Assembly: GCF_963921235.1 (NCBI RefSeq)
Contig: NC_086108.1
Location: 46,874,001-46,938,000, forward strand
Source: Mobula hypostoma
Taxonomy: Eukaryota
Direction of reading: 5' to 3'
DNA: 64,000 bases
The position numbers and the translations under genes are program-made. Every line of letters begins with the position of its first letter. Position 1 is the first letter of the stretch. This document shows positions 8,119 to 60,601 of the stretch, in pieces. A model generated the notes under the pieces. That model did not search any database. It was not told the origin of the DNA and saw only the letters and a program-made list of their open reading frames with translations.

Positions 8119-11100
8119 CTGGGGGGGGGGGAGAAAATATTTTCAAATGATCTCACGTTATTAACAAAATCTCAGCAAATGAGACACAAGTAAAAGTCAC
8201 CAAGACTGTGACGGTATTTCTAATTAAGTATAAGCATTCCATTGGCAAAATTTGATTGTGAGATTTATATTATAATTTCCCCTACAGACAAAAATCCAGT
8301 CAAATGAAAGGCAGCTTACTGGAATCCACCGCTCAACTCAAAATCATGATTATTCTCAGAATAATGCCTAACTTTCAGAATAAACTCAACGTTCATTTCC
8401 ACATATGGACTTACATTTGTAAGGGGACAGTGCTGCTGGGCATACCACTCCTGAGAATACAGACATACCAACATGCCCTGCCCCAGGAACAGCGAAGTCC
8501 ACATCACCACGTTCCAAACAGGTCCTTTCCGACGGTCATGCAAGACGAAATTGAAAGCCACTACAAAACAAATGTTTACAAGTCAATCATTTAGAGTTAA
8601 TTGAAACAATGAGTTACTGATTTTACCAAACAAGCTATTGGCTACCTGAATAGCAAATAAAACATCTGTTTAAAAAAGCCTAATGTGAATGCTGGCCAAT
8701 CCATGTGTATTTTTACTTCTTACTGAAAGATTGAAGAGCACATCACAAGAAAATGAATGAGCAGAGTGAAGTAATTTTTAAATTGAGGGGGTACAGGTTC
8801 AAAAATAATTCAATATCATTAGCAACAAAACATTTAAAATGACAGGCAACTTCAAAATCATCAGATTGGAGGAGCAAGACCTTATTCCATCTGGATAGTC
8901 TCCAACCTGACAACATGAATATAGATCTCTCTAACCTATAATATTCACTTTACCTTTATCCCTCCCCTTTCCCATTCTAGCGGCTCTCATCCCTTTCCTC
9001 CTTCCCACCCTCACGACTTGTCCATCACCTCCCTCTGCTTCCCCACTTCTTTCCCTTTATTCCATGGTCCACTATCCTCGCCTACCAGATTCCATCTTCA
9101 GCTGTTTACCTCTTCCACCCATCACATCCCAGGTTCTCACATCGTTCCCCTCCTCAACCACCTTCCTCCTCACCTAGTCTTATCCATCAACTTCCAGCTC
9201 GTACTCTGCCTTCCATTCCCCTTCCTTTCCAGTCCTGAAGGATCTTGGCCAAAAGTATTGACTGTTTCCCTCCATAAATGCTGCCTGGCCTGCTGAGTTC
9301 CTCCAGCACTATGTGCTACTCACAATCCTCTTTAACCTACTGTGAAGCTAGTACATAGATAAATAGGCAAGCGAAATGCACAGATAATACATTCAAAGGT
9401 CAGCTGGCACAGTCTGAGTAGATTCCTTTGTTCTAAATGTCCATGTTCTGCGAATTAAGAAAGCAAAGTTTCTTTTTATAGCTGAGTGAGTCAATGGAAT
9501 TAATGCACATTCCAGCATGGAACTCTGCTATGAAACTTTTGCTGGTCATTTGAGTAGAAGTATCTGACCTTAAAGTAGCTCTGGTAAAGGTGCAAAAATT
9601 ACTTATGGATAAACCAACAGATAATTTTTTTAAAAAACGCAAACACGAGGAAATCTGCAGATGCTGGAAATTCAAGCAACACACATAAAAGTTGCTGGTG
9701 AACGCAGCAGGCCAGGCAGCATCTCTAGGAAGAGGTACAGTCGACGTTTCGGGCCGAGACCCTTCGTCAGGACTAACTGAAGGAAGAGCCAGTAAGAGAT
9801 TTGAAAGTGGGAGGGGGAGGGGGAGATCCAAAATGACAGGAGAAGACAGGAGGGGAAGGGATAGAGCCAAGAGCTGGACAGGTGATTGGCAAAAGGGATA
9901 TGAGAGGATCATGGGACAGGAGGCCTAGGGAGAAAGAAAAGGGGGAGGGGGGAGAGAAACCCAGAGGATGGGCAAGGGGTATAGTGACAGGGACAGAGGG
10001 AGAAAAAGGAGAGAGAGAGAAAAAAATCACTCCATCCTCCCACCACCCCACTAGGAATAGGGTTCCCCTTGTCCTCACCCACCACCCTAACCAGCCTCCG
10101 GGTCCAACATGTTATTCTCCGTAACTTCTGCCACCTCCAACAGGATCCCACCACTAAACACATCTTTCCCTCACCTCCCTCTCTGCTTTCCGCAGGGATC
10201 GCTCCCCACACGACTCCCTTGTCCATTCGCCCCCCCCACCCCCCTTCCCTCCCCACTGATCTCCCTCCTGGCAATTATCCTTGTAAGCGGAACAAGTGCT
10301 ACACATGCCCTCATACTTCCTCCCTTAACACCATTCAGGGCCCCAGACGTCCTTCCAGGTGAGGCGACACTTCACCTGTGAGTCGGCTGGGGTGATATAC
10401 TGCGTCCGGTGCTCCCGATGTGGCCTTTTATATATTGGCGAGACCCGGTGCAGACTGGGAGATCGTTTCGCTGAACACCTACGCTCTGTCCGCCAGAGAA
10501 AGCAGGATCTCCCAGTGGCCACACATTTTAATTCCACATCCCATTCCCACTCTGACATGCCTATCCACAGCCTCCTCTACTGTAAAGATGAAGCCACACT
10601 CAGGCTGGAGGAACAACACTTTATATTCCGTCTGGGTAGCCTCCAACCTGATGGCATGAACATTGATTTCTCAAACTTCCACTAATGCCCCACCTCCCCC
10701 TCGTACCCCCTCTGTTATTTATTTATATACACACATTCTTTTTCTCTCTCTCTCTCTCTCTTTTTCTCCCCCTCCCCCTCTCAAATCTCTTACTAGCTCT
10801 TCTTTCAGTTAGTCCTGACGAAAGGTCTCGGCCCCAAACGTCAACTGTTTCTCTTCCTGGAGATGCTGCCTGGCCTGCTGCGTTCACCAGCAACTTTTAT
10901 GTGTGTTGCAGATAATTTTTTTGATGATAATTCCAAACCTTGGGAAGTGATTATGGTGGTGGGTGGTGGGGGAGGCACTGGGGAACAGAGGAAGGGGGAA
11001 CTTGTAAGAAATGCAAGTTCTCACAATGACGTGGTGCAATTGCCATACTTAATGACATAGGTGAACACTTACTGAAGCGAAAGCCAAAAATTAAAATGTA

Positions 11101-20100: not shown

Positions 20101-23100
20101 CTATACAACATATCTGTCAGACCACATGGATATTAGTCAGTCATAGAAGACTACAGCACAGAAACAGGCCTTTTGGCCCATCTAGTATGTCCCAACCATT
20201 AACCTACCTAGTCACATTGACCTGCACTTGGACCATAGCCCTCCACACCCTTCTCGACTGTGTACTTATCCAAACTTCCTCTACTTGCTGAAATTGAACC
20301 TGCATCCACCACTTACAGTGACAGCTCATTCCACACACTCACCACGAGTGAAGTCTCCCCCTCATGTTCCCATTAAACATTACACCTTTTACCCTTAACC
20401 CATACCCATGTTATAGTCTCACCCAACCCCAGTGGAAAAAGCCTGCTTGGATTTACCCTTTCTATATCCCTCAATTTTGTATATCCCTATCAAATCTCTC
20501 TTCAATCTTCTATGTTCCATGGAATAAAATCCTAACCTCTTCAACCTTTCCCTGTACCTCAGGTGCTCAAGTCCTGGCGACATCCTTGTAAATTATCTCT
20601 GCACTCTTCCAATCTTACTTACATCTTTCCTCTATGTAGGTGACCAAAACCGCAGACAATATTTCAAATTGGGCCTCAGCAACATCTCATACAACTTCAA
20701 TATAACATCCTAATTCTTGTACTCAGTACATTGATTTATGAAGACCAATGTGGCAAAAGCACTTTCTTCATGATGATAGCTACTTGCGACGCCACTTTCA
20801 AGGAATTGTGGATCTCTAGTCCCAGGTCCTTCAGTTCAACTGCACTCCTCAGTGCCCTGCTGATCACAGTGCAAGACCTATCCTGGTTGGCTGTCCCAAA
20901 GGGCAACACCTCACATTGTTCTGCATTAAATTCCACCTACCATTTTTCCAGCTGGTTCAGATCCTACTGCAAGCTTTGATAGCCTTCCTTGCTGTCTAAT
21001 ACAACCCCAACCTTGGTGTCATCAACAAATTTGCTGATTGTTTACTACGTCATCATTCAGATTGTAGATATCTATTCACAGGCTTCCAATCAAAAAGGTA
21101 ACCATTTACTATCACTCTGGCTTCTGCGAGGCCAATGTCTAACCCAATTTACCACCTCATCTTGAATGCCAAGTGAATTAACCTTCTTGACCAACCGTCC
21201 ATGTGACACCTTGTCAAAGGCCTTGCTGAAGTCCAAGCACAGTACTTTGCAGAAGACTTTGACACATGAAAGAAAATGATGTGAAGCGAGGATGCTTTCA
21301 AAGATAATGAAATGAAAAAATTCTTAAATATCAAAAATTACAGCAGCAAACAGTAAAAAAAAACTAAATCAAATCAGTATTTGGTGTGACCATCCTTTGC
21401 CTTTAAAACTGCATCAATTATCTTAGGTACACTGTCGTATAGTTTTATAAAGAAAATTGGCTGGTAGGTTGTTCCAAGAACCTTGGAGAACTTGCCACAG
21501 TTCTCTTGCAGAGTTTGGCTGTCTTGCTTGCTTCTGTCTCTCCAGGTAATCTCAGACAGCTTTGATGATATTGAGATCAGGACCCTGTGGAGGCCATTCC
21601 ATCTTTTGAAGAACTCCTTGTTCTTCTTTCACTGAAGATAGTTCTTTATGAACTTGGCCATGTGTTTGGGGTTACTGCCCTGATCAGAAGCAACTTGGAA
21701 CATTAGCCCTACCATGTTCAAACTTGAGTAGGCTTAACAACATCTTTCTCCAAAACCACTCCACCATCTGTTTAGGCATTCTGGTTCCCATCCCCCTGCA
21801 TCTCTAGTTTAACACCCCCTACCCCCCACCATTTAACACCAGCAAGCCTTCCTGCTAGCATATTAATCCCCTTCCAGTTCAGGGAATTGTCCCTTCAATT
21901 CAAGCCCTATCTTATTTGGGAGCCCAATGATCCAAAAATCTGAAGCTCTCCCTCCTACACCAGCTCCTGAGCCATGTGTTAAACTGTATGATCTTCTCAT
22001 TTCTGACCTCATTAGCATGTGGCACAGGTAGCAATCCTGAAAACACAACACTGGAGGTCCTGCCCTTTAACTTTGCATCCAACTCCCTGAAATGAATTTG
22101 CAGGACATCATCCTACCCAAGTCAATAATACCTCTATGGACCACGACCTCTGGCTGCTCCAGCTATAGCTGTAAACACAAGCAATCTAAATGTCAAAACT
22201 CTAATCTACATTGAAAACGGTGTATGAAGCTCCAGATTTCTACCAAAAGCATTGGTTCTTTAACCTCCAAATGCCAAAACACAAATCCTATTCTGAAACA
22301 GGATTAGGCAAAAAAGGTGGTTTCTATTTTCACATTAACTGACGTGTTCAATGTATGCTACTAGATCACAAGTCCTTCAGGCTCCTTCCACGTTCTAGAA
22401 CCACAAGAGTGCACTCACTAAATCTGACTTTCAGTTAAGAATTCAGAGGGGGAATTACAATGCAGCACAAATGGTCAATTATTTTAGAGCAGGTGAATCA
22501 ATTGCACCCCAGCTCCTCATACAAGCCAAGCAGGTCGAAATGTTCCTTACCCAGAGAAAGTCTCTGTAAGCATAATAGTACAGCCAGTCATGGACCACTA
22601 CGTTCCAGGTCCGGTAATAGTTGGCAAAGGATGTGGAATTCCACCAGTCCTGAATGGAAATGGAAAAGACAAAATAAGGCTCAAAATCCAAAAATGATGT
22701 CTACTATAAGCCTACAGACTCTCACAGCTACCTGGACTATTCCTCTTCCCACCCTGTCTCTTGCAAAAATGCCATCCCCTTCTCGCAATTCCTCTGTTTC
22801 TGCCGCATCTGCTCTCAGGATGAGGCTTTTCATTCCAGGACAAAGGAGATGTCCTCCTTTTTTTAAAGAAAGGGGCTTCCCTTCCTCCACCATCAACTCT
22901 GCTCTCAAATGCATCTCTCCCATTTCACACACATCTGCTCTCACCCCATCCTCCCGTCACCCCACTAGGAATAGGGTTCCCCTGGTCCTCGCCTACCACC
23001 CCACCAGCCTCCAGGTCCAACATATTATTCTCCGTAACTTCCGCCACCTCCAATGGGATACCACCACTAAGCACATCTTTCCCTCCCCCCCCTTCTGCTT

Positions 23101-26100
23101 TCCTCAGGGATCGCTCCCTATGGAACTCCCCTATCCATTCGCCCCCCCCCCATCCCTCCCCACCGATCTCCCTCCTGGCACTTATCCTTCTAAGCGGAAC
23201 AAGTGCTACACGTGCCTCCCTCACCACCATTCAGGGCCCCAGACAGTCCTTCCAGGTGAGGTGACACTTCAGCTGTGAGTCAGGTGGGGTGATATACTGC
23301 GTCTGGTGCTCCCGGTGTAGCCTTCTATATATTGGCGAGACCCGACGCAGGCTGGGAGACGGTTTCGTTGAACACCTACGCTCTGTCCGCCAGAGAAAGC
23401 AGGATCTCCCAGTGGCCATACATTTTAATTCCACGTCCCATTCCCATTCTGATATGTCTATCCACAGCCTCCTCTACTGTAAAGATGAAGCCACACTCAG
23501 GTTGGAGGAACAACACCTTATATTCCGTCTGGGTAGCCTCCAACCTGATGGCATGAACACTGACTTCTCTAACTTCCGTTAATGCCCCACCTCCCCTTCG
23601 TACCCCATCCCTTATTAATTATTTTTTTTTTTCCCTCTCTCTGTCCCTCTTGAGACTTCCGGTAGCGCTCATGGAGTGAAGTCGCGTTCTTGACTCGCTC
23701 CATTACCTCTGAGTTTTTTTTCTCTATGGTCAGCTATACTTTAATTAACCATTAAGGCATCAATTCTTATAATACTTTGAATTAAACTGAATTCTCCGAC
23801 AACTGGATGATACTTAGATCTGCTATGTCTAAGAACGGGAAAAACGGCAAGGATGGTAAACCTCCGGTTAAACCGAAAGCTACGGATCTCCCCCCGACTG
23901 AATCACCGGTGACTTTGAAAGCTATATCGGAGTTAATTCAGAGGGAAATTTCAACCTCTGTTAGGGAGATGATTCGTACGGAAATTGCAGGCCCTGTTAA
24001 AGACCTGATTCATACGGAAATCTCAACTAATCTCCAGAAAATTGCCGATTCAATTGATAAGATGCAAACATTTATTGCGGAACATCAGTCGGCTATATCT
24101 GATCTTCAAAAATTCGCGCAACAAAGTGAGCTTAAGATGGGGAAAATCGAAGAAACAATTAATGTAATGAAGAAGAAACTTGACTTTTTGACTTTTAAAA
24201 ATTCTGACTTGGAATCTAGAATGCGACGGCAGAATTTACGAATGATCGGGGTGAGGGAAGCTGTGGAATCTAACAACCCCATGAAGTATTTTTCTCAACT
24301 TTTAAAAGATGCATTCCCTACTGTATTTCCTGACCAACCACCGCTTCTGGATCGTGTTCACAGAATCCCATCATACTCGTCTAGGTCAGATAGACCTAGG
24401 CATGTTATCTTACGTTTTCATTACTTTCAAGACAAGGAGAGACTGTTTCGATTCGCTCGATCTAAAGGTTTCATTGATTTTTCGGATCTTAAGTTCCGAT
24501 TCGTGGAAGATTTCAGTAAACCAATCTGGGACCAACGGGTTCGTTACAGATCCGTGATGTCGGAATTCTATAAGATGGATTTAAGACCAGCGCTGCTGTA
24601 CCCTGCACGTCTAAGGATTCGCATGTCAGATGGAGCCCTTCGTTTTTTTTGATTCTCCATCGGATGCCCAGAGTTATCTGGATCAACTTTCATCTTCAAC
24701 ATCTTAATTGCTTTTTTTAAATTATCTCTCTGTCCCTCTTACTCATCCTCTGGGCTCCCCGCCCCCTTTCATTCTCCCACGATCCTCTCCCTTCTCCAGC
24801 CTCGTATCCCTTTTGCCAATCAATTTTCCAGCTCTTAGCTCCATCCCTCCCACTTCTGTCTTCTTCTATCATTTCCGATCTCCCCCTCCCACTTTCAAAT
24901 CTCTTGCTACCACTTCTTTAGTCAGTCCTGACGGAGGGTTTCAGCCCGTAACGTCGACTGTACCTCTTCCTATAGATGCTGCCTGGCCTGCTGCGTTCAC
25001 CAGCATTTTTTTTGTGTGTGTTGCTTGAACTTCCAGCATCTGCAGATTTCCTCATGTTTGCACTTTATTCAATACTTTGATTTGCCCAAGGCATAATTTA
25101 TGATTCTTTACATTTGGTTCAAAGTAGTACTTAAGTAAAGCCCACTCTCACTGTTTACTAGTTACTTCTGCCATTGCTTTGTTCCCCACAATATTACTGA
25201 TATCCAAAAATATTAAGGGGAATGAATGCAAATGGATGTGGGTGCATGAGCCAGAAGCCACCATTTCACTTTGAACTGCATACAACAGCATTTCCCCCAT
25301 CTCAACCAATTTGCAGGAAGCATACAAACTGCAGTCAGCAAATTTCAGCCAGTATTTTAGAAAACACTTGCCCTATACTTATGGAGCCTACTTTTTTTGA
25401 TGATGTGTAAGCTTTGTAGCAAAAAAAAAAGGCTAAAATGAAAGTACAGGAACTGAGAGATTTATACATGTGATTGCAAGCACTTCTGATGAAATGTATA
25501 TACTGTTATCAACCCAAAGACATCAGATAGGATTAAAGTAACCACAGAACATTATGTGCATCCAAGAATTTAAAACGACCAAAGGTTACCTTATAAAACA
25601 TCCTGTCAGCAAACTGCAGCATTTCAGCAAAGGCATTGAGCCAACAGTGGAGAAATGCAAAGAAAGCCAGGAACAGCACGAGCACACCTGAAAAACAAAG
25701 CCGTACACAACCTGTGATATTTGCCACAACTGGCGGGGTCTCAGTACATTTGCAAAATCCTTGACTTTAATCCCCAACCACAATTCACTCAACATTACAA
25801 GGGACATTTTAAATAATCTAAACCAGATACTGCTTTCACTTGCAATAAGTGAGTGAGATAAGCAGCTTCCTGCTTCAATTAAGAGGTTGAGTTAGCAGCA
25901 CAGTTGACACTGGTCATCTTGAAGATTGGACCAAATATGTGACTGCTTCAGCTTCTTGATCCCTTTTGTTTTGGATTAAGTATTATGGGCGCAGTATTAT
26001 TCACAATAAGCACCGATTACAATTGATATTTACAGGTGGTACTTTCAGGATGTGTGCAAGAACGATCCCTACCTGGTAAAATGGAGTTGAAAATGCAAAG

Positions 26101-51186: not shown

Positions 51187-51336
51187 TCTAATCATGTACT
51201 ACAATTTCACCTGGGAGGTGGGAAAGGAAGCAATGAAAAGCCCTATATTGCTCCTACAGCTAGACGTAGGAGCACTATAGGGCTTTTCATTGCTTCCTTT
51301 CCCACCTCCCAGGTGAAATTGTAGTACATGATTAGA
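51187..51336. repeat. 150-bp near-perfect palindrome (71-bp arms, 8-nt loop)
   Basis: 51187-51257 is the reverse complement of 51266-51336 with one mismatch; loop agctagac. Confidence 0.97.
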
Positions 51337-53700: not shown

Positions 53701-54140
53701 CATTCTGGTTAATTGGGACACATTGGGACCAGTACATTTTGGCCCAATTCAAGCAGCTGCCCCGATTAGCTGATATTTCATGGAAGTAGTTTAAGTATAT
53801 AAAAAAGGCAAACTACCATTTAACGGAGTAGCAAAATATGTTTTTAAATGAAACACAGAAGAAATTACGACACTATTGATACCATGACAATAGCAACAGA
53901 GGAATTCATCCAGTGTACCTGTATACTGTCGGGCTCTTTTGATGACTGTAAATGAACAAAATCAGTGCAGACACCTTGTGCGGATAATGGACACTAGATG
54001 TCTGCACTGACTTTGATTTTACAGTCAAAGGGAACATACTGTCTCAAATAAATGAAGGGAATCCCAGCTATTTTCTCAATTAGATTTTCTTCTTCAAGGG
54101 ATATCCCAATTAAGTGGCTGCTCCAATTAAGCAGAATACA
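53701..54140. mobile_element. Tigger/pogo-like MITE (same family as 727-4720)
   Basis: ttctggttaattgggacacattgggac at the left and cccaattaagtggctgctccaattaagcagaat at the right form imperfect inverted ends. Confidence 0.65.
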
Positions 54141-58200: not shown

Positions 58201-58858
58201 AGTAGGGAAGTTACGGAAACTATGATGATTAAAGAGGAGGAAGTACAGGCGCTTTTAAGGAATATAAAAGTGGATAAGTCTCCAGGTCCTGACAGGATAT
58301 TCCCTAGGACCTTTAGGGAAGTTAGTGTGGAAATAGCAGGGGCTCTGACAGAAATATTTCAAATGTCATTAGAAACGGGGATGGTGCCGGAGGATTGGTG
58401 TATTGGTCATGTTGTTCCATTTTTTAAAAAGGGTTCTAAGAGTAAACCTAGCAATTATCAGCCTGTGAGTTTGATGTCAGTGGTGGGTAAATTGATGGAA
58501 AATATTCTTAGAGATGGTATATATAATCATCTGGATAGATAGGGTCTGATTAGGAACAGTCAAAATGGATTTGTGCGTGGAAGGTCATGTTTGACAAATC
58601 ATATTGAATTTTTTGAAGAGGTTACTAGAAAAGTTGACGAGGGTAAAGCGGTGGCTGTTGTCTATATGGACTTCAGTAAGGCCTTTGACAAGGTTCCACA
58701 TGGAAGATTAGTTAGGAAGGTTCAATCATTAGGCATTAATATGGAAGTAGCAAAATGGATTCAGCAGTGGCTGGATGGGAGATGCCAGAGAGTAGAGGTG
58801 GATAACTGTGTGTCAGATTGGAAGCTGGTGACTAGTGGTTTGCCTCAGGGATCTGTAC

Positions 58859-59620
58859 ACACTTCCTCCCTTACCACCATTCAGGGCCCCAGACAGTCCT
58901 TCCAGGTGAGGCAACACATCACCTGTGAGTCGGCGGGGGTGATATACTGCGTCCGGTACCCCAGATGTGGCCTTCTATATATTGGCGAGACCCGACGCAA
59001 ACTGGGAGATCGTTTCGCTGAACACCTACGTTCTGTCTGCCAGAGAAAGCAGGATCTCCCACTGGCCACACATTTTAATTCCACGTCCTGTTTCTATTCT
59101 GATATGTCTATCCACGGCCTTCTCTACTGTAAAGATGAAGCCACACTCAGTTTGGAGGAACAACACCTTATATTCCATCTGGGTAACCTCCAACCTGATG
59201 GCAAGAACATTGACTTCTCAAACTTCCGCTAATGCCCCACCTCCCCCTCGTACCCCATCCGTTATTTATTTATATACACACATTCTTTTTCTCTCTCTCC
59301 TTTTTCTCCCTCTGTCCCTCTCACTACACCCCTTGCCCATCCTCTGGGTTTTTTCCACCTCTCCCCCTTCTCTTTCTCCCTAGGCCTCCTGTCCCATGAT
59401 CCTCTCATATCCCTTTTGCCAATCAACTGTTTCGCTCTAGGGTCCATCCCTCCCCCTCCTGTCTTCGCCTATAATTTTGGATCTCCCCCTCCCCCTCTCA
59501 AATCTTTTACTAGCTCTTCTTTCAGTTAGTCCTGACGAAGGGTCTCGGCCTGAAACGTCGACTGTACTTCTTCCTAGAGATGCTGCCTGGCCTGCTGCAT
59601 TCACCAGCAACGTTGATGTG
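58859..59620 (+). mobile_element. Penelope-like 3' fragment nested in the CR1 RT
   Basis: GIY-YIG domain plus tail; tgtac duplicated at 58854-58858 and 59621-59625; the CR1 resumes at LGPMLFVIY. Confidence 0.93.
59527..59564 (+). ncRNA. Minimal hammerhead ribozyme motif
   Basis: tagtc-CTGACGA-a-gggtctcggcct-GAAAC-GTC-gactg (helix II closing pair is G-U). Confidence 0.6.
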
Positions 59621-60601
59621 TGTACTGGGTCCAATGTTGTTTGTCATATATGTTAATGATCTGGGTGATAGGGTGGTAAATTGGATTAGTAAGTATGGAG
59701 ATGATACTAAGATAGGTGGCGTTGTGGATAATGAAGTAGGTTTTCAAAGCTTGCAGAGAGATTTGGGCCAGTTGGAAGAGTGGGCTGAAAGATGGCAGAT
59801 GGGAGTTTAATGCTGATAAATGCGAGGTGCTACATTTTGGTAGGGCTAATCAAAATAGGACATACATTGTAAATGGTAGGGCATTGAAGAATGCAGTAGA
59901 ACAGAGGGATCTAGGAATAATGGTGCATAGTTCCCTGAAGGTGGAATCTCATGTGGATAGGGTGGTGAAGAAAGCTTTTGGTATGCTGGCCTTTATAAAT
60001 CAGAGCATTGAGTATAGGAGTTGGGATGTAATGTTAAAATTGCACAAGGCATTGGTAAGGCCAAACTTGGAGTATTGTGTACAGTTCTGGTCACCAAATT
60101 ACAGGAAAGATGTCAACAAAATAGAGAGAGTACAGAGAAGATTTACAGGAATGTTACCTGGATTTCATCACCTAAGTCACAGAGAAAGGTTGAGCAAGTT
60201 GGGTCTTTATTCTCTGGAACGTAGAAGGTTGAGGGGGGACTTGATAGAGGTATTTAAAATTATGAGGGGGATAGATAGAGTTAACGTGGATAGGCTTTTT
60301 CCATTGAGAGTGGGGGAGATTCAAACAAGAGGACGTGAGTTGAGAGTTAAAGGGCAAAAGTTTAGGGGTAACATGAGAGTGGTTGCTGTGTGGAACGAGC
60401 TTCCTGCAGAAGTGGTAGAGGCAGGTTCGATATTGTCATTTAAAGTAAAATTGGATAGCTATATGGACAGGAAAGGAATGGAGGGTTATGGGTTGAGTGC
60501 AGGTCGGTGGGACTAGGTGAGAGTAAGCGTTCGGCATGGACTAGAAGGGCCGAGATGGCCTGTTTCTGTGCTGTAATTGTTATATGGTTATAATTATCAC
60601 C

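Follow-up and report, generated by a model that had tools for sequence, protein, structure and literature searches.

What event left a 1,073-bp piece of an L1 element, carrying its first open reading frame (ORF1) and nothing of the second, between two copies of a 16-bp word in the tail of a Penelope-like element? The locus lies in a 64,000-nucleotide stretch of Mobula hypostoma DNA, referred to here as the window. An initial annotation, made from the letters alone, had considered either a new ORF1-only family of the HAL1 kind, or an L1 RNA that had been primed internally or copied in trans by a reverse transcriptase (RT) other than that of L1. We find that the copy is a real insertion of the front 1,073 bases of a young, multi-copy L1, lying within a dead Penelope copy. 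Among these alternatives, internal priming of an L1 RNA is the best fit, in view of a family contig that runs past the junction, a TCTC match at that point and a flipped endonuclease-like site. Such copying is likely to be an accident of an already known kind, and not the mark of a new half-L1 family.

The 16-mer at 23636-23651 is repeated without change at 24725-24740, and neither strand of the window has a third occurrence; the chance of such a word at the local base composition is about 2e-8. Both flanks belong to a single Penelope-like copy that continues in register across the 1,073-bp insert (23652-24724), and none of the five other Penelope pieces that were aligned has a tandem repeat at this site. 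The pair is therefore a target duplication, as first proposed, and a pre-existing tandem repeat of the Penelope consensus, the refutation named at the time, is ruled out. Paralogous Penelope copies carry the core of the duplication once, and the 10-nt core of the 16-mer has one further, single occurrence at 59311, inside another Penelope copy. No AATAAA is present anywhere in the insert, there is no A-run of five or more 3' of 24201, and the sequence ends 17 nt beyond the natural ORF1 stop, in agreement with the original description of an element without poly-A. No L1 ORF2 lies behind the insert in the window. With no mobility of its own, the copy is a dead-end insertion in which the promoter region and nearly the whole of ORF1 are preserved (Table 1).

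Table 1. Positions of the features at the insertion locus, numbered within the window.
Feature	Position	Strand	Evidence or remark
Host Penelope-like element: 5'-truncated coding part (RT end/linker, GIY-YIG at 23265-23582) and start of the tail	22696-23651	+	Four frame breaks, one in-frame stop
T-rich target tract resembling the L1 breakpoint sequence	23615-23639	+	17/25 identical to 24704-24728; length picked post hoc
Left copy of the 16-bp target duplication	23636-23651	+	Exact repeat of 24725-24740
L1 5'UTR, 173 nt with 6 CpG, natural L1 start motif	23652-23824	+	Motif in L002 and L004, similar in L001; consensus in passages of PMC5381506
L1 ORF1 (coiled coil, RRM, CTD), frame broken at T8 24643-24650	23825-24707	+	PF02994; human ORF1p structures
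Stub of T-rich post-ORF1 sequence, likely start of the ORF1-ORF2 spacer	24708-24724	+	Contigs in 4/4 runs (bin 24674-24724); fish spacer anatomy
4-nt microhomology TCTC between family continuation and start of duplication	24725-24728	+	One X6 contig
Right copy of the 16-bp target duplication	24725-24740	+	Exact repeat of 23636-23651
L1-endonuclease-like site TCTT/AC, top strand (opposite to normal sense insertion)	24737-24742	+	4/5 against TTTT/A; sense side 0/5
Rest of the Penelope tail, with core (24928-24953) taken to be hammerhead-like	24741-25063	+	Core altered relative to three other copies

The insert begins with GAGACTTCCGGT. This start motif is identical in the metagenome loci L002 and L004, where it lies directly 3' of AT-rich flank, and similar in L001; the passages of PMC5381506 give GGACTTCCGGTT as the L1 start in zebrafish and GACTTCCGGTGN8ATGGCG in lizard. 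Judged by these relatives and the fish-type consensus, the 5' end of the insert is natural, which bears out the initial view of an intact 5' end with a short, CpG-containing 5'UTR. The ORF1 product (ORF1p) matches Pfam PF02994 (Transposase_22) above the cut-off (E 7.4e-10), the search that had been suggested for it, and matches human ORF1p structures with an E of 1.3e-15 over residues 99-275 of the query. An ORF1p is thus present as annotated, but its length of 281 residues belongs to a broken frame read from an upstream ATG at 23807, and the relatives start at the ATG equivalent to 23825. From 23825 the frame stops at 24650, just after a run of eight T, and the following frame supplies 19 residues up to 24707 (stop 24705-24707) that resemble the C-terminal ends of the ORF1p of teleost relatives. 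The observed/expected ratio of CpG is 1.06 in ORF1 against 0.17-0.22 in the flanks. Positions 23929-24036 encode three imperfect 12-residue repeats (36-nt unit), which form a 17-residue insertion relative to teleost ORF1p; since family contigs cover this region, the repeat is a family trait.

The evidence on the family comes from four of 23 public runs (X1, X5, X6 and X9), all of it in contigs and not in reads. One T at 24643 is missing in 10273 of 12856 units of depth in X1 (nine contigs), 4192 of 6537 in X5 (three), 1290 of 2021 in X6 (three) and 1169 of 1231 in X9 (one), where depth summed over contigs is not a copy number. Most of the contig depth thus lacks one T in each of the four runs, so the T8 frame break is not the state of the family; T7 is its main state, and at the family level the earlier guess of a surplus T is supported. 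Most of the frame breaks near the locus (22696-23260 and 24643-24650) fall in single-base runs, and slippage or assembly error may explain them. Contigs cover the insert over its whole length in all four runs. Pieces over the insert have a depth of 415-424 in X1, compared to 12-27 for three flank pieces, and pieces in X5 differ from the insert by 0-1 letters in 103-144 nt, which together indicate that the L1 family is multi-copy and young. A drop in depth at 24725-24775 was left out of account, as the Penelope tail is diverged there. Among the 24 loose ends listed of 943, none lies at 23652 or 24724, and no weight is placed on this. Of the 36 positions listed, 14 show the insert in a state other than that of the X1 majority, or about 1.3% of the insert's length.

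One X6 contig aligns as far as 24728, four bases (TCTC) into the right duplication, and then continues for 102 nt that are unlike this stretch of the window; it is a single contig among the 24 loose ends listed of 943. The 30 letters given of the continuation contain two CpG, a number reached by 39% of the 30-mers of the insert compared to 1.4% in the flank and 5.4% in the window; they match neither a poly-A tail nor Penelope and do not occur anywhere in the window. We read the continuation as the ORF1-ORF2 spacer of the L1 family, stopping short of ORF2, though it may instead come from the flank of another copy. As TCTC is common to element and target, the 3' boundary is a range, 24724-24728: a boundary near the annotated position of 24724 stands, but not its placement to the base. 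Two other X6 loose ends lie inside ORF1, one with 26 letters ending AATAAAAAA behind 24293 and the other with 52 unrelated letters before 24001; each is maybe a truncated copy or a chimeric transcript.

The GIY-YIG domain of the host Penelope was recognized with an E of 0.014, below the Pfam cut-off, and the copy is 87-91% identical to three other copies in the window. In the coding part, 17 of 353 positions carry a private substitution in a comparison of three copies; for the tail, with four copies, the figure is 20 of 219. We take the core of the tail to be hammerhead-like; Rfam gave no match at the gathering score, either in the window or near the insert. The host copy is decayed, with its frame breaks, stop codon, private substitutions and altered core, and the insert departs little from the X1 majority, suggesting that the L1 likely arrived after the Penelope. 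The host copy is dead and looks older than the insert, although its GIY-YIG part, with only 2 private sites of 192 in a four-copy comparison, points the other way on relative age. Penelope-like DNA constitutes 7% of the window, and the landing of an L1 in it is therefore unremarkable.

Elsewhere in the window, two outward-facing Penelope arms at 9632-10909 are joined at 10025/10027 with their hammerhead-like tails outermost, and a Penelope piece at 58858-59640 breaks a CR1/L2-like RT frame at about 58857, with CR1-like sequence resuming near 59682. Self-complementary stretches are found at 51187-51336 (150 nt at 96%) and 53943-54027 (85 nt at 78%).

We next consider the chemistry of the junctions. 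At the left edge, the bottom strand, which has to be nicked in a normal sense insertion, reads GAGA/GG and scores 0/5 against TTTT/A. The endonuclease-like site lies on the other strand (Table 1); TCTT/AA is a recorded L1 endonuclease site according to passages of PMC4859970. Matches of 4/5 occur by chance at 24 of 493 top-strand positions in the Penelope tail (4.9%), so the flipped site is no more than suggestive. The RNA reads UCUC at the point where the family continues (one contig), and the bottom-strand end, GAGA, complements these 4 nt; in the whole element, TCTC has 8 occurrences among 1074 positions. The breakpoint sequence (24704-24728) ranks first of 1053 positions in the element for likeness to the T-rich tract at the target; in two teleost L1s, a match of 17/25 or better is reached at 3 of 5916 and 4 of 5676 positions, respectively. 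With 17, 15 and 10 upstream bases the rank of this likeness is 7/1057, 15/1059 and 33/1064, respectively. The likeness is not within the duplication, the part on which a simple primer would draw.

Taken together, we favour with moderate confidence a one-off, 3'-truncated L1, primed internally at the four-nucleotide match and cut short at insertion. From the duplication, the site scores and the four-nucleotide overlap that are seen, we infer the following steps. The top strand would be nicked by the L1 endonuclease at TCTT/AC, and a cut in the second strand 16 nt away would create a 3' end GAGA. This end would pair with UCUC in the L1 RNA, at 18-21 nt beyond the stop of ORF1, and be extended to the 5' end of the RNA; the T-rich likeness near the target perhaps aids pairing of the RNA with the opened target. 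An arm primed on poly(A) at the first nick would leave nothing, or nothing past the final TT of the duplication, and joining and fill-in would then create the duplication. A staggered break made without an endonuclease would give an identical product, and plain internal priming at a staggered break is described in passages of PMC5402677. The absence of a poly(T) arm at the insert counts against this scheme, as one is present at all 39 loci in the portion of PMC2837659 considered. Nor is an empty site, or a contig across either junction, among the matches listed. The source is likely an ordinary two-ORF L1 of the fish type.

The structure of relatives could be followed at seven loci. Two of the seven (L001 and L003, both teleost) are full elements with ORF1, a spacer of about 690-750 nt, ORF2 and an AATAAA/A-rich end; the other five have no ORF2 behind ORF1 in the available DNA, which ends 150-700 nt past ORF1 in four of them (at most about 250 nt in L002 and L004, at most about 700 nt in L005 and L006) and runs for about 1.9 kb without ORF2 in L007. 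Relatives with ORF2 are about 35% identical to the ORF1p of the window and fall outside its starred clade in a tree that was built quickly from 56 rows, has long branches and is given little weight. At only about 35% identity, these loci show the plan of the lineage and not that of the insert's own family. In L007 (1-2139) and L006 (1153-1700), both teleost-like, L1 character is lost soon after the ORF1 stop, and spacer breaks may be common in the lineage. Neither the 392 candidates (best 35-46%) nor the representatives included a protein closely related over its full length, and the exact ORF1 protein is absent from the protein collection searched. Relatives of ORF1p were found in none of 31 candidates from viral contigs and none of 18 from prokaryote genomes. 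A guanylate-binding-protein-like gene model of Mobula hypostoma (P0011, XP_062918526.1) has its first 63 residues identical to residues 80-142 of ORF1p and leaves ORF1 at a likely splice donor near 24250, a possible capture of an L1 promoter or exon, or an artefact of the gene model.

The insert could also have begun as a full-length L1, with a duplication of 35-37 bp starting in the TTAATT tract, from which ORF2, the 3'UTR and the poly-A were deleted later. The route would be annealing of the T-rich stretch after ORF1 with the right duplication and a crossover at TCTC, and the likeness between breakpoint and target tract, at its best position in the element, favours it. Moreover, 3' ends are missing in 51.5% of stickleback Expander copies, and large deletions are a frequent cause of 3' end loss in fish, according to passages of PMC3381678. 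We nevertheless consider a later deletion unlikely, though by no means negligible, and the annealing route no more probable than that. The 25-nt comparison was chosen post hoc and its rank falls at other lengths; a duplication of 35-37 bp is about twice the usual for L1 (7-20 bp in the excerpted part of PMC2837659); the breakpoint must fall within a few bases inside the duplication, in a copy that is young; and the TCTT/AC site would be due to chance (about 5%).

A source in an ORF1-only, HAL1-like family, either longer-tailed with this copy cut short or ending at 24724-24728, appears more doubtful. The family is young and multi-copy, the break falls neatly 3' of ORF1, no ORF2 follows in the window, and ORF1-ORF2 fusions are missing among longer proteins, where the one match in 871 candidates is a Mobula hypostoma gene model; this is weak evidence. 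However, elements of the HAL1 type are bipartite and keep the 3' part of L1 (PMC5786205, in the passages available), and the insert has neither this part nor poly-A. Its anatomy is that of the front of a canonical fish L1, and the nearest protein in the ORF1 tree, P0012, lies on a contig of 6071 nt, the size of a full L1, which is suggestive only. A family that ends at the junction, as the initial annotation had envisaged, is weakened by the X6 contig that continues past 24728. Similarly doubtful is the wider claim that the source was an active ORF1-only family in a ray-like fish, or that internal priming in a U-rich spacer repeatedly makes promoter-plus-ORF1 modules; if either were true, the founding step of half-L1 families would have been caught in the act outside mammals.

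Copying of the L1 RNA by the RT of Penelope or another non-L1 element, in trans or by template switching during Penelope synthesis, is very improbable. It was brought to mind by the target, which is a Penelope tail, and by a sense-side nick that is unlike an L1 endonuclease site, yet the decay of the host Penelope, the likely later arrival of the L1 and the abundance of Penelope-like DNA all argue against it. The trans-mobilization proposed earlier thus gains no positive support, and the T-rich end that was taken as a hint of it is what fish L1 spacers look like. Even less credence is given to an assembly artefact, in the form of a collapsed or mis-joined repeat. No contig spans either insert junction among the matches listed, and several of the frame breaks are in single-base runs, but the usual mis-join does not have a locally unique 16-mer duplicated exactly and a natural 5' end at one side, and the flanks are in register.

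If internal priming is the right reading, a cartilaginous-fish-like genome has here gained a tailless L1 whose copying began inside the RNA, at a U/C-rich site, with no poly(A) arm left behind. This would suggest that a complete copy can be primed from the second nick by itself, and a promoter-plus-ORF1 piece is of the sort from which half-L1 families could arise. This is a single locus, and known L1 biology is unchanged by it. Titles and abstract openings, with few subscription papers or Repbase reports among them, named no half-L1 and no tailless L1 from sharks or rays, and the word 'shark' has no match in the passages of PMC5381506 and PMC5203782.

How does the insert compare with known systems? 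The closest is the twin-priming variant of Meyer et al. (2010; Fig. 1c of PMC2837659, seen in part), invoked for 39 primate L1 insertions, in which the arm primed on poly(A) comes to a halt within the tail. Those insertions have a flipped endonuclease site, microhomology in the 3' junction (positions 1-4) and duplications of 7-20 bp. Like these, our insert is a sense L1 without a 3' poly-A, with a duplication of usual length, a flipped site and microhomology at the 3' junction. In contrast to the 5' poly(T) of 14-39 nt seen there, the duplication here joins the L1 start directly; the insert reaches the exact 5' end and was primed about 1.07 kb from it, whereas 37 of the 39 loci lie near the 3' end; and the host is a primate there and a cartilaginous-fish-like genome here. 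The variants set out in that part of the paper do not explain its own two loci near the L1 5' end. The insert is thus a limit case of the class, without poly(T): it works like the class but is not filed in it.

Internal priming of L1 and Alu (Srikanta et al., 2009, via passages of PMC5402677 and PMC4859970) and the tailless retropseudogenes (Noll et al., 2015, in the excerpt of PMC5322556) share with the insert its 3' truncation, lack of poly-A and flanking duplication, all of which are present here, as well as complementarity between target and RNA where the break lies; the sense-side endonuclease site may be lacking in them too. They differ in that their RNA sites are mostly A-rich with a TT/WAAAA-type target, while that of the insert is U/C-rich. 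Tailless forms, of 5S and U2 RNAs, were found only in therian mammals and anole among the vertebrates screened, as far as the excerpt of PMC5322556 goes.

HAL1 (Bao and Jurka, 2010, via passages of PMC5753468, PMC5786205 and PMC4859970) codes for ORF1p alone and had several separate origins in mammals (PMC5753468), and it shares with this copy an L1 5'UTR and ORF1 without ORF2. HAL1 elements are propagating families, classed with bipartite elements that keep the L1 3' part (PMC5786205), and as this part and the poly-A are missing here, the insert is not filed as HAL1. Nor did any second copy ending at this point come to light. Zebrafish L1s, in the passages of PMC5381506, have a 5'UTR of 113-267 nt with about seven CpG; their ORF1 measures 780-1059 nt and is followed by a T-rich spacer of 311-730 nt. 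The 5'UTR of 173 nt and ORF1 of about 880 nt of the insert are inside these ranges. With the canonical fish L1 (also L001 and L003) it shares the start motif, the short 5'UTR, the ORF1p domains (coiled coil, RRM and CTD) and T-rich sequence after ORF1, and it differs in the 17-residue insertion of its ORF1p and in lacking everything beyond about 20 nt into the spacer, including ORF2, AATAAA and poly-A.
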